This document shows positions 52,507-61,014 of a DNA stretch of 64,000 bases, in pieces. A program made the position numbers and the translations under genes. Source of the stretch: Candidatus Bathyarchaeota archaeon (GTDB lineage Archaea; Thermoproteota; Bathyarchaeia; Bathyarchaeales; Bathycorpusculaceae); the NCBI GenBank assembly GCA_963806535.1, contig CAWDYC010000009.1, positions 32,001 to 96,000 of the forward strand, written 5' to 3'. Under the pieces are notes generated by a model, which was not told the DNA's origin, searched no databases, and saw only the letters and a list, made by a program, of their open reading frames with translations. The stretch's first letter is position 1. Each line of letters begins with the position of its first letter.

Positions 52507-53433
52507 TCAGGGTGAGATTTTTTCGATGACTTTTTTGAGAAATGACTGGAAGCTATCCAAAAACTTGCCGAATTCTTCTCCATCAATCTCCCGAAGCAAT
52601 AATCGCTTTTCTTCTCCCCATCTAAATGGCTTTGAAGCCACGATGGCTTTCTTTGCCTCAAAATTCTCCTTATACTTCTGATAGGCACCAAGTGCAAAGC
52701 GGATCTTATCCACAATTGGCTCAAGCAAGTCCTCTAACTTCAGGTCATATTTCGTGCATATCAGGTAAATATCAAGAAAGTCACGCGCTTTGAATCCTTC
52801 CCTTGTGAGAATCGAGCGAACCTTCTCGCAAAGGATTTCACGCGTATCGTATACATGCAAACTAATCGTTTGGCAGTACTCTGCGTATTCCGGGAACAAA
52901 AAGGATAGCTCGTCACTTTGCGTGCATTGCAAAGTGCTAAGCTTACCATTCTGTGGTGCAAAGATTAGTTTCTCAACGAAGTTCATCTGGACTTTAACAA
53001 AGCTTTCTACGTTTAGTGTCTCCGCTCGGTACCATATCTTGAATGTGCACATCTTGTTGCTTCCGCCAAGCTCGACATAGTGCCTGTCCTGCTTATCACA
53101 TTTGAAATCTAGCGCTCTCTTCTTTGCTATTCCTTCAAAAATTGACCCCACTTTGTCAATGGTCTCCGAAAGCAATCCCCGAATTTTAGTCTGGGATTTG
53201 CCCTCGTAAACGCTTTGATCTTTCCAGGTAAAGTCTATGTCTTCTGAGAATCTGTAGTAGTCGAGGTAGCATTTGGTCAAACAGGTACCTCCTTTGAAGA
53301 CAAAGTTGTTGGAAAAGAACTCATCTTGCGAAAGGTCTGTTAATATTTGATGGAGAATCAAATCTTTCTCCAGTAAGTCTGCCTGCTCAACGCCATTTTG
53401 CCTTGCAACCTCTGTTACAAAGTCTTTTCTCAT
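52507..53433 (-). CDS. abiEii: AbiEii-family nucleotidyltransferase toxin (type IV TA)
   Basis: EKD, FKGGTCL, RFSEDIDF, EKVRSIL, KARDFLDI. Confidence 0.92.
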   Translation of the reverse strand: MRKDFVTEVARQNGVEQADLLEKDLILHQILTDLSQDEFFSNNFVFKGGTCLTKCYLDYYRFSEDIDFTWKDQSVYEGKSQTKIRGLLSETIDKVGSIFEGIAKKRALDFKCDKQDRHYVELGGSNKMCTFKIWYRAETLNVESFVKVQMNFVEKLIFAPQNGKLSTLQCTQSDELSFLFPEYAEYCQTISLHVYDTREILCEKVRSILTREGFKARDFLDIYLICTKYDLKLEDLLEPIVDKIRFALGAYQKYKENFEAKKAIVASKPFRWGEEKRLLLREIDGEEFGKFLDSFQSFLKKVIEKISP

Positions 53434-54083
53434 GCAAGTACCTTATGCTTATGTGCTATTTCGAGTGCGATTTCCTGGGCTGTCTTTGGATAATTCTTCG
53501 AATATTCAATGAGTCTGGATGCCGATAAATTGATTGACCAATCGCCAATATCAGCAATTATCCGGTCCCTTGGGATCCCGTTATAGCGCCACATGTAAAT
53601 GAAATCTAAAATGGTTTTTTCAGGATCTGAATAAGATAGGGCATCCTTAGTTATGATTCCGAAATTGAAAAGTGAAGATTTTAGCTTCATAAATCGGAAC
53701 TTATGCCCTGAAATCTTCATCGGGTTTATGCGCAGCATTTTATCGTTGACTACATAATCGATAGAAAAATATTCATGCGTCATGTTGTTTAGCTTCAATG
53801 CCGAGTAGAGACCTAAATACCAGTTCTTAACATCTTTTAATTCTAAGCCCTTGGCGACAAGCTCTAGATAGCTGTACTTTGTTGTCCCTAGCTTCATCTC
53901 GTCTAAGGACTTAACGTAGAAGATGCCTCTGAAAATGCGTATAAAGTGACCGCGCGTAACAAAATGGTCGATTGCTGACTCATAATCAAGATTCAGTTGT
54001 TTGCAATAGCTCTTGAGTTCCTCTGATGTCACTATCTCTTTCTTTTCGAGCCGCAATTTCTTTAGCAAAAGGCTTGTTTTCAT
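53430..54083 (-). CDS. abiEi: AbiEi-family antitoxin/regulator
   Basis: RIFRGIFY wHTH wing, YLGLYSAL, SDPEKTILD; ATGA-coupled to abiEii. Confidence 0.82.
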   Translation of the reverse strand: MKTSLLLKKLRLEKKEIVTSEELKSYCKQLNLDYESAIDHFVTRGHFIRIFRGIFYVKSLDEMKLGTTKYSYLELVAKGLELKDVKNWYLGLYSALKLNNMTHEYFSIDYVVNDKMLRINPMKISGHKFRFMKLKSSLFNFGIITKDALSYSDPEKTILDFIYMWRYNGIPRDRIIADIGDWSINLSASRLIEYSKNYPKTAQEIALEIAHKHKVLA

Positions 54084-54297
54084 TTATATTACAACCATGC
54101 ATTTTTTGCAGTATTATGATATATATCACAGTAGCAGTATTTAAATTAGGGTTTTCGCAACACTCGACCACATCGACGGCACAAACGACGGTTCAAACCT
54201 AAAAGTGAAACCGCCACAAAAGCAGTATATGAGGCGCCTTCATAACGCCCGAATAGCGAAAAACTCTCCAAAACAAGCTCCGACAAGGGTGATTTTA

Positions 54298-54325
54298 TGG
54301 TCGGGAGAGCAGGATTTAAACCTGC
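54298..54325 (-). repeat. 28-bp copy of the tRNA-Tyr 3' end (att site), one mismatch
   Basis: tggtcgggagagcaggatttaaacctgc versus tggtcgggagagcaggatttgaacctgc at 59761-59788. Confidence 0.9.
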
Positions 54326-54331
54326 ACCACC

Positions 54332-55213
54332 TTACTTTTTTTGGCGACGCTTCTTAACCATCAATACGGCCAGTATAATGATTGAACCGACAATCGCCGC
54401 TATACCGAGTACATATCCCCAATCAACAAAAATCCGAGCTGGCCCAAAATCGACGTTTGTGCTGCCGAACTCAGCCGATTGAAAGTTATCGGCTATGCCT
54501 AATGCTTTGAGCAGGGGTTCATGATTTACTGTACCGTAGAGGAAAAGACCCGTGTCATACTCGTAACCAAAGAGATTATTGATTGTAGAGATGTCTTGTC
54601 CATCGATCTTGCCTACCATGTTTTCAAGCATGAAAGTGCGTTGTGCCCCCTGGTTCGCCGTTTTATACACAGTAGTATCGCCACCATATGAGGTGCTTAC
54701 ATTTGCGGTTGCCCTATCGGGAGGTAAATCCCAAAACACGACTTCTGCTCCGTCTGCGGGGCTGGAAGGCATCCACATGCGCGTTGTTCCAATCACGGTG
54801 CCGTTTTGCAGGTAAACGCTGCGGCTGGCGGTGTTTACGTTCACTGTGGCTGACGTGTAAAAGTTGTCGCTTGACAGGTCGGATGTAATTGTGTATGTGA
54901 CGTTTAGTGTTGCTGTGTTGCCATCTAGCCGGATGCATTCCCAGCGAAGTGTTGCTGAAGTAGCGTTTTTGTAGTCATGGAAACTATTGTTGAGAAACAT
55001 CAACTGTGAAACTATATAGGAAGTGCCCTCTTTGTGCATTTCTGAAAAAGGGAAAGTGTAGGTTGCATATGTGCCTGCCTTCATCCAGTTAGGGGCAAGA
55101 AAGCTTGTGGATTCGACTTGGGCGGCGCATGAGAGAGCAGACAAAGACAGCAGCAGAAGCGCCAGTACCGCGGCAGTAATAGTGCTCTTCTTTTTAGGTA
55201 ACCTCGTTTCAAT
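54332..55213 (-). CDS. Exported protein with C-terminal TM anchor (paralog 2); start uncertain
   Basis: Signal-like stretch continues in frame to ATT 55213 behind GGAGG; 'PNWMKAGTYATY', 'YEYDTGL', TM plus basic tail. Confidence 0.7.
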   Translation of the reverse strand: METRLPKKKSTITAAVLALLLLSLSALSCAAQVESTSFLAPNWMKAGTYATYTFPFSEMHKEGTSYIVSQLMFLNNSFHDYKNATSATLRWECIRLDGNTATLNVTYTITSDLSSDNFYTSATVNVNTASRSVYLQNGTVIGTTRMWMPSSPADGAEVVFWDLPPDRATANVSTSYGGDTTVYKTANQGAQRTFMLENMVGKIDGQDISTINNLFGYEYDTGLFLYGTVNHEPLLKALGIADNFQSAEFGSTNVDFGPARIFVDWGYVLGIAAIVGSIIILAVLMVKKRRQKK

Positions 55214-55225
55214 TGCCTCCTCGCC

Positions 55226-56168
55226 CTATCTTCTTCGATGGCGCCTCACAATCATCAATACAGCGATTGCTACGATTGCACCTACAACCGCCCCTACACC
55301 GAGCCAATAGCTCCAATTAATAACAGCCCGTGCTGGTCCCATATCGACGTTTGTGGTTAGGGAGTTGAAAGGATCATAGATGTTTATGCCTAACGCGACA
55401 TGTATGGGTTCGAACGTGAAGTCATTGCCGCCGCCATCAACCATGAGACCCGTATCGTACTCATACGTGGCGGTTCCAAAGAAGCCCACCTTGTTGGTGT
55501 CCTTCCCGTTTATCGTACCAGCCACATTTGCAAGCTGAAAGGCGGTTTGGGCACCCTGCGGTGTTTCTGATGTCCATATGTTGTCGCCGTTAGGTATCTT
55601 TGTGGTGACGTTTGCGGTTACTTTGTCGGGCGGCATGTCCCAAAGCATGACTTCTTGCCCTTCTGCAGGACTGGATGGCAGCCAAAGATTTGTGGTTCCG
55701 ATAAGAGTGCCGTTTTGTAAGTATACGCTGCGGCTGGCGGTGTTCACATCAACTATGGCTGATGTGTAAAAGTTGTCGCTTGGAAGGTCAGAGTTAATGG
55801 TGTATGTGACGTTTAGTGTTGCCATATCTCCGCTTAGCTGGATGCATTCCCAGCGAAGAGCCACTGAAGTAACATTATTGTACTCGATTCCAATGCCATC
55901 AGTGCTATTTAGAAAATTCACATAAACAGATTTAGAGGTGTCTAAAACTCCATTTTGTATATGACATGCCCATCGGGGTTAAGTCGTAGTTTACGTATGT
56001 GCCTTCTTTCATCCAGCTTGGCGCCAGAAGGCTGGAAGATTGGGCTGTGCAGGCTGCGATGGGCACTAAAAGTATTAGGAGCGCCACTGCGGCGGCTGGC
56101 ACTACAACGCCTTTTGTGGACTGCGCTTTGTTTTCGGCCTCTGCTTCCTCTGGAGATGAGCCCTGCAA
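55226..56168 (-). CDS. Exported protein with C-terminal TM anchor (paralog 1), frameshift at ~55930; possibly fused to the upstream gene
   Basis: 'PSWMKEGTYVNY', 'LRWECI', 'VNTASRSVYLQNGT', 'YEYDTGL' shared with paralog 2. Confidence 0.65.
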
Positions 56169-56667
56169 TGGTGACTACTGCCCCCAACGCAGTGATGCCC
56201 AGTGATGCATACAGCAGGTCAGTTTCAATTCCGTATCCCGAGTACTCTATGAGATATTCTACTGCTTCTTTGGATGGATTATGGACAAGCAACATATAGT
56301 TGTCTCTACTATTGAGATGGAAAGTTACAACCTGCTGCTTTACCCCCTCGAAGGAACAAGCCGGCGCAAGCGTACCCTCAGTATTCCATAGCCGTATACC
56401 TTCTGAATTCAACACGTAAACGTCGAGTGTTCCATTAGATTTTACATCCATTCGAAAGTCACGTGGAACCTGGAAGTATGCGCCAAACGCTCCAGAGCTG
56501 CCAGTATTTCCTCTTGGACTCCAATCATCTGGCGCTAAACCATCAAACCCACTGCCAATTGAGCCACCACCTCCCTCTTTGGTGCTTCTATAGAGGGTGC
56601 CTACCAAGAAAGAGAGCCCGATCACTATGATTAGTATGCCTGTTTTGGTTAAACGGTTCATTTTCAT
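55942..56667 (-). CDS. Two-TM membrane protein with extracellular beta domain; 3' end probably frameshifted
   Basis: N-terminal TM, 'LDVYVLNSEG', 'YMLLVHN', second TM 'LYASLGITALGAVVTIAGLI'. Confidence 0.6.
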   Translation of the reverse strand: MKMNRLTKTGILIIVIGLSFLVGTLYRSTKEGGGGSIGSGFDGLAPDDWSPRGNTGSSGAFGAYFQVPRDFRMDVKSNGTLDVYVLNSEGIRLWNTEGTLAPACSFEGVKQQVVTFHLNSRDNYMLLVHNPSKEAVEYLIEYSGYGIETDLLYASLGITALGAVVTIAGLISRGSRGRKQSAVHKRRCSASRRSGAPNTFSAHRSLHSPIFQPSGAKLDERRHIRKLRLNPDGHVIYKMEF

Positions 56668-56668
56668 T

Positions 56669-57406
56669 TTAGTCAACCTCCATAACACGGGTGAAGTACA
56701 CATAGGACCCCCCGATTAAGACCCCAAAAGCTACGAATGGTATCAAAACTGCCAGCAGCGTGTCGTTTGCTGTAACGCCGGTCGTACCGGGAATAGGTGG
56801 CATACCGTGTAGTTGTTGGCCAAAGTATTGGAGAAGATAATATACTCTACCTTCAGCTGACAGAACATTGTTGTATCCGAGAATGCTGTCGAGGCCGAAC
56901 AGCAACAGGACAGTAGCTAAAATCGACATGATTTCATTTTTCGTCACCATCGATATGCCAACAGCCACAGAACATGATAACATTAGCTCTAATAGTAAAC
57001 CGAACAGCGTCAGAAAGACCAGCGGATCAAAGGCAGCTATACCATCGATGTAAACATGCAGATAGTATATTGGAATGTATATTGCAAAAACTACAAGGAA
57101 TAGGGCTGTAAATTTGGAGAGGAAAAGCTCAGAACGCTTAATTGGGTAGGACAGCATGAGTTTTGTTTCGCCTCTGCCGATGCTGCCAGCGTAACTACGC
57201 GCAAAGAATGCGCCTGCAACCAGAGCCAAAATGAGCAATACTGTGCCTGAACCAAAAAACAGGTTGTAGTACGGGGTGGGCGGACTGAAGTAGGTATAAC
57301 TCAGTGTAGCGATGATTGCCGATGCAACAAGAAAAATTAGCAGGGGCAAGCTTAGGTATTCTTCTATTTCCCAGCGTATTAAGCCCAAAAACTTGTGCTG
57401 CGCCAT
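56669..57406 (-). CDS. ABC-2 type permease
   Basis: 'GETKLMLSYPIKRSELFLSKF'; about six TM helices. Confidence 0.85.
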   Translation of the reverse strand: MAQHKFLGLIRWEIEEYLSLPLLIFLVASAIIATLSYTYFSPPTPYYNLFFGSGTVLLILALVAGAFFARSYAGSIGRGETKLMLSYPIKRSELFLSKFTALFLVVFAIYIPIYYLHVYIDGIAAFDPLVFLTLFGLLLELMLSCSVAVGISMVTKNEIMSILATVLLLFGLDSILGYNNVLSAEGRVYYLLQYFGQQLHGMPPIPGTTGVTANDTLLAVLIPFVAFGVLIGGSYVYFTRVMEVD

Positions 57407-57407
57407 T

Positions 57408-58328
57408 TTAGCTGCCTCCTGCGGTTTTTGCGTAGATTTCATCTATGGTGCCTAGCATGTGTTGGAAGGTTTTTAGTTGCAGTTTGAGGTTAGCGGCGAT
57501 TTTGGGGACTTCGGTGTAGAATGCCGCTTCGTCTTTTACGTGGCAGTATATGATGTCGTTTTCCACCCAGACTTTTTCGATGTATGCAGCGGTTTTTAAT
57601 TTGTCAACGAGCAGCTGTGTGTTGGAGACTACGATTTTGTATGTGTTCGCCGAATACTTCGCTGATAAGTCATTTATGGGGCCTTGGTCAACAATTTTGC
57701 CGCTGTCTATGATTGATAGATAGGTGCATACTTTTTCTAAATCGCTCAAGATATGCGTTGATATCAAAAAGCTGATACCGTGTTCTTTGTTCATCTCTTT
57801 TATTATACCGAGAAGTGTTGCGCGGCCAATGGGGTCAATATTGGCGGTGGGTTCATCGAGAATGGCGAGTTCGGGGTCGCTTATTAATGCTTGGGCTAAG
57901 CCTAAACGGCGAATCATGCCTGCCGAGTATGCTTTGATGGGTTTCTCCCGTGCATCCCACAACCCCACAGCCTTCAATTGAGCATTAATTCGTTCCTCAG
58001 CCTGTGAGATGCCATAAATCCGCGCTACATGCTCAAGGTAACGTTTGCCATTGAAGCTACCTGGGTATGCGTTGGTTTCATGCATGACACCTAATTTGCT
58101 TCTGATCTTGTAGCTGTCCGTCCATGAATCTAAACCAAAAACGGTGGCTTTACCGCTCGCGGGTCTAAGTAGTCCTAACAGGACTCCGATGGTTGTGGTT
58201 TTGCCTGCGCCGTTTCTGCCTACAAAGCCAGCTATTCCCGGTGGCACATGTAAGTTTAGTTCTTTTAGGGCAAAATTTTTTCCAAATGATTTTGAGATCT
58301 TATCTGTGTTAACTATATTGTTACTCAA
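57408..58328 (-). CDS. ABC ATP-binding protein
   Basis: GRNGAGKTT, YSAGMIRRL, LDEPTANID, STH. Confidence 0.92.
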   Translation of the reverse strand: MSNNIVNTDKISKSFGKNFALKELNLHVPPGIAGFVGRNGAGKTTTIGVLLGLLRPASGKATVFGLDSWTDSYKIRSKLGVMHETNAYPGSFNGKRYLEHVARIYGISQAEERINAQLKAVGLWDAREKPIKAYSAGMIRRLGLAQALISDPELAILDEPTANIDPIGRATLLGIIKEMNKEHGISFLISTHILSDLEKVCTYLSIIDSGKIVDQGPINDLSAKYSANTYKIVVSNTQLLVDKLKTAAYIEKVWVENDIIYCHVKDEAAFYTEVPKIAANLKLQLKTFQHMLGTIDEIYAKTAGGS

Positions 58329-58396
58329 GCGCTGTCCCCCTTCTTACTTTAAAGGGAGTTTGTCGCCTATTAGTATTGCGCAATGTTTAAATAATA

Positions 58397-58416
58397 GTAA
58401 GCCACGAAAGGCTTAC
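58397..58416. promoter_or_regulatory. Palindromic operator upstream of the ABC operon TATA box
   Basis: GTAAGCC-acgaaa-GGCTTAC; same arms as 59639-59658. Confidence 0.75.
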
Positions 58417-58435
58417 ATAATGGCTGTTTTGGCAA

Positions 58436-59167
58436 TTAGCTCTGACCTGGCGGCTTAGCAGGCCACCCGAGATAATTACCCTCTGAGTTAAACAAATACG
58501 ACGGGTCAGGAGCTGTAGGAAAAGTAAAATGATCATTACTCCACAGGATCCCGTCCGGAGTATTAAACACGATAGTGTACAACATAGGACGCCAACTGTA
58601 TGGCCACGGATAACTTACCGTTACGTTGCATCCCCCTTGTTCACTGGTGAGGGTTGGCTGTTGCACTTCGGTTTTTGACAGCTCCGTAAGATTATACAAC
58701 TGCAAATTCACCACACCCACTGAATGTGCTCCTACAGTGAAGGATCCATCTAGCAACGCAAACAGTTTGCCATCTCGGTAAATCTCGATGGATGTTACAG
58801 TCAAATTTTGATCCCCAGTGTTAGTTAGGCTCACATTTATGTTGCCTAAATCGTCGTTGCTGCATTCGGATATTTCGCCGCCGCCATCAAATCCGTTTGA
58901 ATTGTTGGTTTCTGTTATGGCCTGATATGTTGCGTTTTGTATGTACTTTGGGCCTTCGCCTACATTAGCAATTGAAAGAATGGTGCTTGATGCTAAGACC
59001 GTGCCCTGCCCAACTATTAAGCCGGCATAGAATGGAGCTAAACTTGCAAAGATGCTGACGCTCAGTATGGCGCCGATTAAGGTGGCTGCAAGCAGTTTTT
59101 TGTGGCTGTGTTTTGGCGGCTCAGGCGGTATTCTGCACCAATCAAAGAATTTGTTGCCGATACTCAT
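58436..59167 (-). CDS. Single-TM protein with N-terminal WC motif and extracellular domain
   Basis: MSIGNKFFDWCRIPPEP, TM helix, Ig-like 'VSLTNTGDQNLTVTSIEI'; ATGA overlap with the regulator. Confidence 0.7.
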   Translation of the reverse strand: MSIGNKFFDWCRIPPEPPKHSHKKLLAATLIGAILSVSIFASLAPFYAGLIVGQGTVLASSTILSIANVGEGPKYIQNATYQAITETNNSNGFDGGGEISECSNDDLGNINVSLTNTGDQNLTVTSIEIYRDGKLFALLDGSFTVGAHSVGVVNLQLYNLTELSKTEVQQPTLTSEQGGCNVTVSYPWPYSWRPMLYTIVFNTPDGILWSNDHFTFPTAPDPSYLFNSEGNYLGWPAKPPGQS

Positions 59168-59622
59168 TCTTTATCACCTGTAATTGCGGCAAATAGTTTT
59201 TCTGCGTAATCCGAGGGTAAGCAGTCTCCTTGCAAATCTATGTTTCGTTCTTTTGCTTCTGAAATTAGTGCTTCTTTGCATTCTTGGAGTTGGTCGCAGT
59301 TTTTGCAGTCGCCCTCATGTTTGTACCAGAGTTGAATGCCGTTTTTTGTGGAGAAGGTAATTAGGGTTTTTGTTTTGAAGTGGGGACTGTATCCAAGTAA
59401 GAACCCTCTCATGGGGTTTACGGTTTGGATTTTGATTTTGTTTATTCGGGCAGTTTCTTCGAGTGATTCAGTGATTTTTAGATGAGCGATACCTATGGCT
59501 TTGTGTATTGTTTGTCGGCTCACTTGGAGTTCTCTTGCGATGCTTGCTTCTTGGAGTCCTGTGCGTTTGTATTCCCAGATTTGTAGCTGTTTTGGGGTTA
59601 GGTAGCCGATGCTTAAGCTCAT
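59164..59622 (-). CDS. Sigma70-region-4-like HTH regulator with C-terminal HxxxCxxCx5C motif
   Basis: LTPKQLQIW...ASIARELQVSRQTIHKAI; WYKHEGDCKNCDQLQEC. Confidence 0.8.
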   Translation of the reverse strand: MSLSIGYLTPKQLQIWEYKRTGLQEASIARELQVSRQTIHKAIGIAHLKITESLEETARINKIKIQTVNPMRGFLLGYSPHFKTKTLITFSTKNGIQLWYKHEGDCKNCDQLQECKEALISEAKERNIDLQGDCLPSDYAEKLFAAITGDKE

Positions 59623-59638
59623 TTTCCGCCGCCTCTGC

Positions 59639-59658
59639 GTAAGCCTTACATGGCTTAC
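59639..59658. promoter_or_regulatory. Palindromic operator between the regulator TATA box and start codon
   Basis: GTAAGCC-ttacat-GGCTTAC. Confidence 0.75.
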
Positions 59659-59760
59659 TTAATATTTAAGGGTAATCTTGCCGCTTGCCTACATTTGCCC
59701 ACGCTTTTTTGGCATCAGAACCCAAAAATTTCAATCAACAAGCACATCAAGACAAGTTTT

Positions 59761-59914
59761 TGGTCGGGAGAGCAGGATTTGAACCTGCGACGGCTCGGTA
59801 TCTGTGGCCTGTGCAGGCTAGAATAAAGCCTACCATGGGTAGACCTCTACAGCGTCTCCGCAGGCTAAGCGTGTTAGCCAGCTCGAGAGCTCTGCCAGGC
59901 TGAGCTACCTCCCG
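59761..59914 (-). tRNA. trnY: tRNA-Tyr(GTA) with two introns (30 nt at 30/31: 59883-59854; 47 nt at 37/38: 59846-59800), CCA encoded
   Basis: Spliced 77-nt cloverleaf CGGGAGG TA GCTC AGCCTGGCA GAGC T CTCGG CTGTAGA CCGAG CCGTC GCAGG TTCAAAT CCTGC TCTCCCG ACCA; C1:G72 and A73 Tyr identity; both introns form BHB motifs. Confidence 0.92.
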
Positions 59915-60047
59915 ACAAAGTCCATAAGGATAAGAGCAAAGAATTTATGTTTTTTGGCATACACCCATTTGTCCAGTCATACTAAACATTTTAATCTATT
60001 AGCAAGAATGTTTTAGATTGATTTTGAAGAGAAAAGAGGCATAGTTT

Positions 60048-61014
60048 ATGGTTAAAACCATTGGCGTTGTTACATCGGGCGGCGATGCACCAGGAATGAA
60101 CGCTGCCATTCGAGCGGTAACAAGGATCAGCCACGCTAAAGGCTTTCAAGTTATAGGTTTCGAAAGAGGATGGGATGGATTATTAACTAACTCGTTCAAG
60201 AAGCTTACGCCTCGCAGTGTGGGCGGCATAATTCAGTTAGGCGGAACCATACTGCATACGTTGCGGTGTCCAGGTTTTGAAGAGCAAGGCGCTGTTAGAG
60301 AAGGCTGCAGAAACCTTGTCAATTAATAATGTTGATGGTTTAGTCGTTATCGGCGGCGACGGCTCATTTAGAGGTGCTTTAGATTTAGGCAAAGAAACTG
60401 ATGCTTTGATGGTTGGTATACCTGCTACAATAGACAATGATGTGTGTGGAACAGATGAAACAATAGGCTTTGACACAGCAGTCAACACAGCAGTAAGCAC
60501 TATTGACAAAATCAGAGACACAGCAATTTCTCATGAACGAATATTTATTGTTGAAGTTATGGGTAGAAAGAGAGGATTCTTAGCGTTGGAAGTGGGCATT
60601 TGTGTTGGTGCAGAAGTGATTTTGATTCCTGAGAAACCCACAAGCGTTGCTGATATCGTGAGGTTGATGGAGGAAAACGCGAAGAAAGGCAAAAGAGCCG
60701 GAATAATAGTTGCGGCAGAAGGCTGTGGCAGCACAAGCAAACTTGCCTTGGAAATGCAGCAGCAAACAGAATCTGAAGTTAGGCTTTCGATTCTTGGGTA
60801 TGCCCAGCGGGGTGGGAGTCCAACGACGCGCAGCAGGTTACTTGCCAGTTTATTTGCGGAGAAAGCCGTTGATTTAATCTGTCAGGGAAAAAGCAATATG
60901 GCGGTTGGACTGCAAAAAGGTGTAATTGCTGGTTACGATCTTGAGACGGCAGCTAATGGTAAGAAGCCGATTGATTTAAGGTTGCTTCAAGTAGCAGATA
61001 TGCTTGCAACATAA
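60048..61014 (+). CDS. pfkA: ATP-dependent 6-phosphofructokinase (PfkA family), frameshift at ~60277
   Basis: TSGGDAPGMNAAIR, GGDGS, PATIDND, VEVMGR, LGYAQRGG. Confidence 0.9.

Follow-up and report, generated by a model that had tools for sequence, protein, structure and literature searches.

The window described here is a 64,000-nucleotide stretch of DNA from a Candidatus Bathyarchaeota archaeon (assembly GCA_963806535.1, contig CAWDYC010000009.1, positions 32,001 to 96,000). It forms part of contig C9 of an assembly of 2,948,905 bp (2.95 Mb) in 12 contigs, with a completeness of 91.75%. Close homologs carry the label Bathyarchaeia. Toward one end it holds two overlapping genes on the reverse strand, a small DNA-binding regulator and a single-pass membrane protein, together with two copies of a palindrome that we predict to be operators:

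59164..59622, minus strand: regulator gene, 152 aa (open reading frame (ORF) list, profile and structure comparison)
58436..59167, minus strand: membrane partner gene, 243 aa (ORF list, ortholog alignment)
59639..59658, no strand: predicted operator O1, GTAAGCC-N6-GGCTTAC, −36 to −17 from the regulator ATG
59659..59669, minus strand: TATA-like element TTAAATATTAA, read from sequence only, abutting the upstream side of O1
58397..58416, no strand: predicted operator O2, the arms of O1 with a different spacer, 19 nucleotides (nt) past the partner stop
58385..58396, minus strand: TATA-like element TATTATTTAAAC, read from sequence, directly downstream of O2

An earlier note on this DNA had described a sigma/anti-sigma-like module made up of a 152-aa regulator, an ATGA-coupled single-pass partner, and two exact palindromes. 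All of these are present, and the start codon of the partner overlaps the stop codon of the regulator as ATGA. The regulator and its membrane protein, which is tagged by a short cysteine-containing tail, constitute a conserved and widespread two-gene archaeal module. Its probable role is to relay surface signals to the promoter of the pair itself, in a manner resembling that of sigma/anti-sigma pairs in bacteria.

Conservation of the pairing was assessed in 72 loci collected with a profile of the regulator from one-genome-per-species contigs. In 67 of these, the gene directly behind the regulator encodes a protein whose N-terminus is a short, basic tail with the motif [W/Y/F/R]-C-[P/R/Q]-x-P, succeeded by a transmembrane (TM) helix. 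The two genes are separated by −32 to +6 nt, except at one locus, where the distance is +66. Elsewhere, a truncated partner carries RCPQP (L022), the contig ends (L030), or a partner reading GWCQKP accompanies a frameshifted regulator (L073). The genome to which the window belongs encodes four regulator paralogs. A six-frame scan of that genome recovered seven tagged tail-TM proteins (one on C9, one on C4, three on C5, and two on C10) and no tagged protein away from the four regulators. Furthermore, among 401 genomes sampled from the class, a profile of the C-terminal domain of the regulator matched 117, including 65 of the 220 of high quality, at one to six copies per genome.

The partner begins with a basic, cytoplasmic tail (MSIGNKFFDWCRIPPEPPK) that spans ~24 residues and has one cysteine, followed by one TM helix in a hydrophobic segment at about residues 23–52 and an ectodomain of ~195 aa. 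No family match was found in Pfam or NCBIfam, and the ESM Atlas groups the protein with unnamed Bathyarchaeota clusters. Across 22 orthologs, residues M1, S2, W10, C11, P14, and P18 are invariant, and the ectodomain is only ~50% identical. When 39 diverse tails are aligned, M1 and C11 alone are invariant and P14 nearly so. Conservation of the tag contrasts with the ectodomains of tagged partners, which share no relationship and vary in length from 65 to 870 aa. Two other readings of this N-terminus were dropped. The idea of a prepilin came from the ESM Atlas, where hints of archaeal flagellin and pilin N-termini score 0.84, below the level of trust, and the usual Gly/Ala cleavage context is absent. 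A cysteine lipobox or lipidation signal appears improbable because the cysteine precedes the TM helix, lies in a basic and presumably cytoplasmic tail, and varies in its distance from the membrane segment.

The module is also found beyond Bathyarchaeia. From the methanogen-bearing phylum of a Geoglobus locus (L069) we sampled 301 genomes, of which ~40 hold full-length regulator homologs (E below 1e-42), the remaining matches covering only the helix-turn-helix (HTH). Thirty-two loci were read, yielding 31 regulator ORFs, and 29 of the 31 are followed by a partner with ...(L/M)GWCP... or ...GLCRKPP.... Ten such partners were scanned against Pfam; six pass the cut-off for DUF1673 (PF07895) and two more score below it. 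An entry in Makarova 2014 reads ‘MGWCP motif, DUF1673’ (PMC4158269). Both the adjacency to membrane proteins with N-terminal WC or WCP motifs and the link to DUF1673, which the earlier note had mentioned, are borne out by these two samples.

The partner in the window resembles the DUF1673 proteins in that it resides in the membrane, has an aromatic-Cys-Pro motif in its cytoplasmic N-terminus, and is encoded directly after a regulator homolog; its own version of the GWCP-type motif is D-W-C-R-I-P, ahead of the membrane segment. It differs in having a shorter tail and an unrelated ectodomain. The partner itself has no match to PF07895, and its genome has 0 matches to this family. No function for DUF1673 was found in print, where the term was seen as table entries. 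Outside the supplementary tables of PMC4158269 and PMC4390880, which may hold arCOG06827 neighborhoods, we found no description of the pairing in the literature.

The N-terminal domain of the regulator is an HTH of the Tfx/EnfR and sigma-region-4 type. Pfam and NCBIfam returned only a short region-4/LuxR-type match at residues 6–54. GerE/LuxR (PF00196) reached E 7e-4 and 19.6 bits, below its cut-off of 23.5, and the Tfx model TIGR00721 reached E 5.5e-4 and 19.8 bits against a cut-off of 60.25, over model positions 6–45 only. A profile built from 56 relatives matched the structure of the Tfx-family protein EnfR (8hno) over residues 4–65 with E 1.4e-6, and the Tfx structure 1nr3 with E 5e-4. In the AlphaFold model of the regulator (predicted local distance difference test (pLDDT) 86.8, predicted template modeling score 0.80), residues 1–60 form three helices, the third of them long. 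This portion aligns with chains of sigma region 4, LuxR/GerE, and EnfR at Z 6–7.5. By VIA it matches 8hno at Z 6.9, with a root-mean-square deviation of 1.3 over 51 residues and 29% identity, and the sigma-region-4 examples 1rp3, 4cxf, and 5wuq at Z 6.6, 6.5, and 6.1, respectively. The likeness to sigma70 region 4 that had been read from the sequence therefore holds.

Following the HTH, the C-terminal domain is predicted to form a four-stranded beta-meander (residues 64–100), a cysteine loop, and two C-terminal helices. It contains the H102-x3-C106-x2-C109-x5-C115 motif that had been recognized from the sequence. The three cysteines of this motif (hereafter the triad) are invariant in 23 close relatives and in 34 sequences spanning two phyla, and are conserved at 90% or more in 56 deep relatives. 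H102 is less conserved, at ~178 of 233 motif strings by an approximate count not cleared of stray matches, and C132 shows no conservation. Foldseek searches of the PDB with the whole regulator found nothing at E up to 0.001; 8hno came closest, at E 0.099. With the C-terminal domain modeled alone (pLDDT 88.6), Foldseek again gave no match at E up to 0.001. By VIA, the best match to this domain has Z 5.1 over 42 residues, all rows are generic four-stranded sheets, and 8hno is absent among the matches listed. As modeled, the cysteine domain thus has no convincing solved relative; we name no fold for it and claim no new one. One candidate relative, a 1270-aa protein (P0175) with 12 stretches matching residues 88–116, was rejected as a repetitive W/C-rich sequence rather than a family member.

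The window contains two exact copies of the palindrome GTAAGCC-N6-GGCTTAC, where 0.10 would be expected; two copies arose in 0 of 100 shuffled sequences. A search of the whole assembly for further copies with up to one mismatch, as the earlier note had suggested, returned only O1 and O2, both in this locus. Of 73 loci, 57 have a shorter form, GTAAG-N10-CTTAC, at a distance of 31–53 bp ahead of the regulator start; counting L056, where the start was mis-set by the script, the number is 58. This form occurs 67 times in 726,072 bp compared with ~0.7 expected from 4^10, and its other places among the loci are a site after the partner stop (in the window locus, WIN, and in L003, L004, L006, L007, and L014) and one extra site in L004. 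Positions 6–7 of the arms vary by paralog clade (GCC, GCT, GAC, GTG, GGT, GAT). In the whole genome this 10-base core appears four times: two here, one upstream of the C4 paralog, and one elsewhere. The site at G000:C4:81173 (GTAAGGGGCAAGCGCCTTAC) is the only GTAAG-N10-CTTAC in the genome that does not adjoin a regulator of this family.

The position of O1 is equally constant. It is placed between the TATA-like element and the regulator start codon, with 16 nt from O1 to the ATG, as the earlier note had it, and orthologous loci have an A/T-rich element in the same place as TTAAATATTAA. Across the 12 closest loci the order is invariably A/T-rich TATA-like element, operator, GAGG, and ATG, so that the operator would cover the stretch where archaeal transcription would start. 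Such placement is the classic repressing position in archaea; EnfR offers one case (PMC10570040). The palindrome is thus a predicted family-wide, position-fixed operator at the regulator’s own promoter. Many paralog loci (L017, L019, L021, L023, L025, L027, and others) also carry a third half-site, CTTAC-N3-GTAAG, at ~−40 to −48 from the start; three evenly placed half-sites hint at binding by more than one dimer.

O2 lies at the head of a different set of genes:

57408..58328, minus strand: ABC transporter ATPase, the first gene past O2 (PF00005, E 1.2e-22)
56669..57442, minus strand: ABC-2-type permease (Pfam matches below cut-off)
55942-56703, 55226-55921, and 54332-55144, minus strand: three genes whose products are membrane-anchored or secreted and belong to no known family (Pfam/NCBIfam scans)

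From TATTATTTAAAC to the start of the ATPase the distance is ~55 nt. The placement of this palindrome just upstream of the TATA-like element of the ABC operon, also given in the earlier note, recurs in orthologous loci: WIN, L003, L004, L006, L007, and L014 have the second site, then ATTTATTTAA, then the ABC genes. The element A(T/A)TTAT(T/A)TAA directly downstream of O2 is kept in these six and in L005, where the O2-type arrangement has one arm mismatch. Loci L008–L013 are without the second site and have other genes or tRNA-like sequence there instead. This distribution would make the ABC operon a regulon member in one subclade only. Of the paired palindromes that had been envisaged, the promoter site is therefore family-wide (57 of 73 loci) and the second is restricted to that subclade. 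From sequence, activation and repression by O2 are equally possible. We lean toward repression at both sites because O2 overlaps the place where the B recognition element would lie.

Two of the surface-protein genes, 54332-55144 and 55226-55921, are neighboring paralogs. Their DNA repeats span 284 nt (77% identity) and 132 nt (71% identity), ~900 nt apart, and both proteins have a C-terminal hydrophobic segment followed by basic residues.

The cysteines of the regulator and of the tail are lost jointly in one clade. Two distant paralogs in the window’s own genome are without the triad and read WYWHDNPEEVTD... where others have WYKHEGDCKNCDQLQEC, and their ATGA-coupled partners begin ...RIRGWLPQKP and ...RIRGWLPKEP. 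These two loci, G000:C5:127739-130896 (L078) and G000:C10:86777-87612 (L077), hold arrays of three and two different membrane proteins, respectively, all of which share the starting tag ...R-G-W-L-P-[KQ]-[EK]-P. We then examined 80 metagenome loci of the triad-less clade, 77 of which could be evaluated (one regulator runs off its contig and two have <75 nt downstream). The tail reads W-L-P (46), W-F-P (13), W-V-P (6), or W-I-P (2) in 67 of the 77 and W-C-P in 0 of 77. The operator differs as well: of the 80 loci, 75 have GTAAA-N10-TTTAC upstream and none has GTAAG-N10-CTTAC. The operator changes together with the regulator clade. A quick tree, the careful tree search being incomplete, places the triad-less group in one clade (17 rows, approximate likelihood-ratio test (aLRT) 99). 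This clade is nested within a larger one (aLRT 96) that also holds triad-bearing members with MGWCP partners. Sequences P0215, P0238, and P0282 are likewise without the triad. The joint loss indirectly supports the idea that the tail cysteine belongs with the cysteine site of the regulator.

We propose that a dimeric repressor with a Tfx/sigma-region-4-type HTH and a single-pass membrane protein together form a two-component-like signaling module. First, the regulator would autoregulate by binding the 20-bp palindrome that separates the TATA-like element from the start of the two-gene operon, and would also bind the second, identical site that heads the ABC and surface-protein operon. Given the position, conservation, and covariation of the operators, we consider this step very likely. 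Second, the C-terminal domain of the regulator would dock on the cytoplasmic N-terminal tail of the partner. The tail cysteine would lie against the C-x2-C-x5-C triad, either as the fourth ligand of a shared Zn/Fe-S center or as a redox-sensitive contact. Whether the tail docks on the cysteine domain, with its cysteine beside the triad, could go either way. Third, docking would keep the regulator at the membrane and off its operators, and the amount of free regulator would be set either by the variable ectodomain or by the cysteine site, through its redox or metal state. Taken as a whole, this is our best explanation of the locus, held with evenly divided confidence. In its most specific form, the three cysteines of the regulator and the single cysteine of the tail would hold one Zn or [4Fe-4S] center as a redox- or metal-labile clasp to a surface sensor. 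That clasp would be the core of a signaling family in Bathyarchaeia and methanogens, with DUF1673 proteins as anti-factors of Tfx-like repressors and W-L-P tails as a metal-free derivative. This form is tentative, and we judge it somewhat unlikely.

The docking step was modeled in one complex prediction of the regulator (56-row alignment) with tail residues 1–32 (39-row alignment) and Zn, as had been suggested earlier. The score was 0.35 (runs 0.35, 0.45, and 0.31) versus 0.02 for the best of three controls; at least 66% of contacts are shared between runs, and the partner has a pLDDT of at least 48. Among reference cases, 58 of 80 solved complexes reach the mark for this score, as do 2 of 110 mismatched pairs; passes at 0.60 or under comprise only 7 of the 80 solved complexes and both of those mismatches. 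The prediction is weak support, a small push in favor of the complex and not evidence of binding.

Several observations weigh against the proposed docking. At the level of the complex score, wrong passes outnumber right ones, except when the guess had good prior odds. Moreover, H102 and the three cysteines amount to four ligands within the regulator, which could therefore hold Zn without a partner; the window regulator and about three quarters of its relatives have all four. The distance from motif to TM helix is 30–45 residues in the methanogen partners compared with ~12 in the window partner, so the geometry is not fixed. Two regulators stand without a partner (L064 and L066), and the W-x-P tail is missing from the partners at 10 of the 77 triad-less loci. 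In L194 the third cysteine is lost alone and the tail cysteine is kept. Finally, the weight of the cysteine covariation is limited because it represents essentially one evolutionary loss. The earlier suggestion that the partner cysteine joins the metal site of the regulator is indirectly favored by the joint loss of both, to the extent that a single event allows.

Some of the same observations would fit a regulator that is a self-contained metal or redox sensor, in which H102 and the three cysteines bind Zn or Fe-S. Such a regulator would sense the cytoplasm and autoregulate, and the tail motif would serve the membrane protein itself (in insertion, cysteine modification, or turnover) without contact between the two. 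The four ligands inside most members, the two regulators without a partner, and the weak complex prediction all favor this explanation, and conservation of the operator requires no partner. However, it leaves unexplained the near-obligate adjacency with start/stop overlap in 67 of 72 loci and the joint loss of the triad and the tail cysteine with the G-W-x-P context kept. It also fits poorly with the lack of any tagged protein away from a regulator in the window’s genome, and with the replacement of H102 in about a quarter of motif strings while the three cysteines are kept. On this evidence, we regard a self-contained sensor as unlikely.

Another possibility is feedback by tag reading, in which the regulator binds the tag of new or uninserted membrane proteins of its own operon and free tag adjusts their synthesis in the absence of any outside signal. 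This would suit a tag that stays conserved on unrelated ectodomains of 65 to 870 aa, and it would suit the paralogous regulators in the same genome that precede arrays of two to three different proteins with the same tag. The window locus, however, has one tagged protein, and the ABC and surface proteins under O2 are untagged. Since tag reading shares its binding step with membrane sequestration, only experiments can separate the two; we consider it improbable.

The last alternative concerns the setting of the module, which is defined by the following features:

59761..59914, minus strand: intron-bearing tRNA-Arg(TCT), immediately upstream of the module (found by ARAGORN when introns are allowed)
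54294..54325, no strand: direct repeat of the tRNA 3′ end, identical at 30 of 32 nt to 59757-59788

Without the intron option ARAGORN found no tRNA in the window, and Rfam at E up to 0.01 found nothing within 59500-60100. The two copies of the tRNA 3′ end bracket 5.46 kb, an islet that comprises the two-gene module, the ABC genes, and the genes of the three surface proteins. Just outside the left repeat lies a minus-strand gene, 53430-54083, whose N-terminus weakly matches AbiEi_4, of the antitoxin type (E 1e-3, below cut-off). In L010 and L013, a tRNA-like sequence …GGCGGGGGTG(C/G)GA(G/C)(C/-)TTGAAC…, recognized by eye, lies 100–150 nt past the partner stop, which suggests tRNA-linked placement of the two-gene module in other genomes too. 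On the far side of the tRNA, two overlapping plus-strand ORFs in different frames (60048-60326 and 60277-61014, together 60048-61014), with GGDAPGMNAAIR at the start, together resemble what we take, by eye and with no family search, to be one phosphofructokinase-type gene. Its split over two frames would imply a frameshift or sequencing error near 60300.

The module could accordingly be cargo of a mobile element, the regulator being the element’s repressor and the cargo altering the surface (for example, in exclusion or defense) with no signaling between the two proteins. The 32-nt repeat brackets exactly the block from regulator to surface proteins, the AbiEi-like gene lies just outside, and the tRNA-like sequence follows the pair in L010 and L013. 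Nevertheless, the window ORFs and family scans reveal no integrase or other mobility gene between the repeats, a family present in 117 of 401 class genomes (one to six copies) and in another phylum is broader than one element, and the idea concerns location and is hence compatible with our best explanation, so we consider mobile cargo on its own quite improbable.

Little is known about transmembrane signaling in archaea besides two-component systems, and the module described here looks like a second, simple route. If the proposal is true, it provides a function for DUF1673, known only as an unexplained expansion in the genetically tractable Methanosarcina, and it answers what relieves repression by the Tfx relative EnfR. 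In addition, the co-varying operator, tag, and regulator would amount to an orthogonal set of parts for archaeal genetics. An autoregulated DNA-binding protein with a membrane-anchored anti-factor is a system of known kind; what would be new is the shared cysteine center, which, if real, is a mechanism of its own.

The closest likeness in architecture is to the ECF sigma/anti-sigma pairs of bacteria. As in those pairs, the DNA-binding gene comes first, and the gene after it encodes a protein that crosses the membrane once, with its N-terminus in the cytoplasm and an outer domain that varies. Adjacency, co-transcription, and autoregulation appear to be shared as well, judging from the ATGA overlap, the adjacency in 67 of 72 loci, and the operators in 57 of 73. 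The sigma-region-4 HTH fold and an H/C metal-type motif (H-x3-C-x2-C in the ZAS anti-sigma factors) are further common points. In contrast, Pfam and NCBIfam detect no sigma region 2 in the regulator, the remainder of which is a beta/alpha cysteine domain. The H/C motif is in the regulator here and in the membrane protein in ZAS, and the cytoplasmic tail of the partner has ~24 residues, compared with ~80 in an anti-sigma domain. The palindromic operator is typical of a dimeric repressor, and the regulator would have no RNA polymerase role. To our knowledge, archaea have no sigma factors. Therefore, the sigma/anti-sigma likeness put forward in the earlier note stands for architecture and HTH fold, and the module is not a sigma/anti-sigma pair by membership.

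By homology, the nearest relatives are the Tfx family, represented by Tfx (MTH0916, 1nr3) and EnfR (TON_1525, 8hno/8hnp). These are likewise small archaeal proteins of ~150 aa, with a homologous N-terminal HTH and following helix. Passages of the EnfR paper describe a dimeric repressor that acts on a promoter pseudo-palindrome; they contain 0 occurrences of cysteine or zinc and state that no anti-repressor is known (PMC10570040). The regulator differs from this family in having no match to PF14601 (TFX_C) at E up to 0.1 and a TIGR00721 score well below cut-off.

The cysteine site and the proposed sequestration also have counterparts. C-x2-C-x5-C is the spacing of the last three cluster ligands in the Wbl (WhiB-like) proteins, whose motif has four cysteines (C-Xn-C-X2-C-X5-C) and whose [4Fe-4S] cluster sits at the interface with a sigma-region-4 HTH. 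Unlike these actinobacterial proteins, the archaeal regulator has C-x2-C-x5-C only, without the fourth cysteine; no Whib Pfam match was reported for it, and its predicted fold is a beta-meander with two helices. In Escherichia coli, Mlc is held by PtsG, the cytoplasmic part of a membrane protein keeping a soluble regulator off DNA, and in the CD4-Lck zinc clasp cysteines from two chains share one metal. The module proposed here would share the principle of both systems, with homology to neither.

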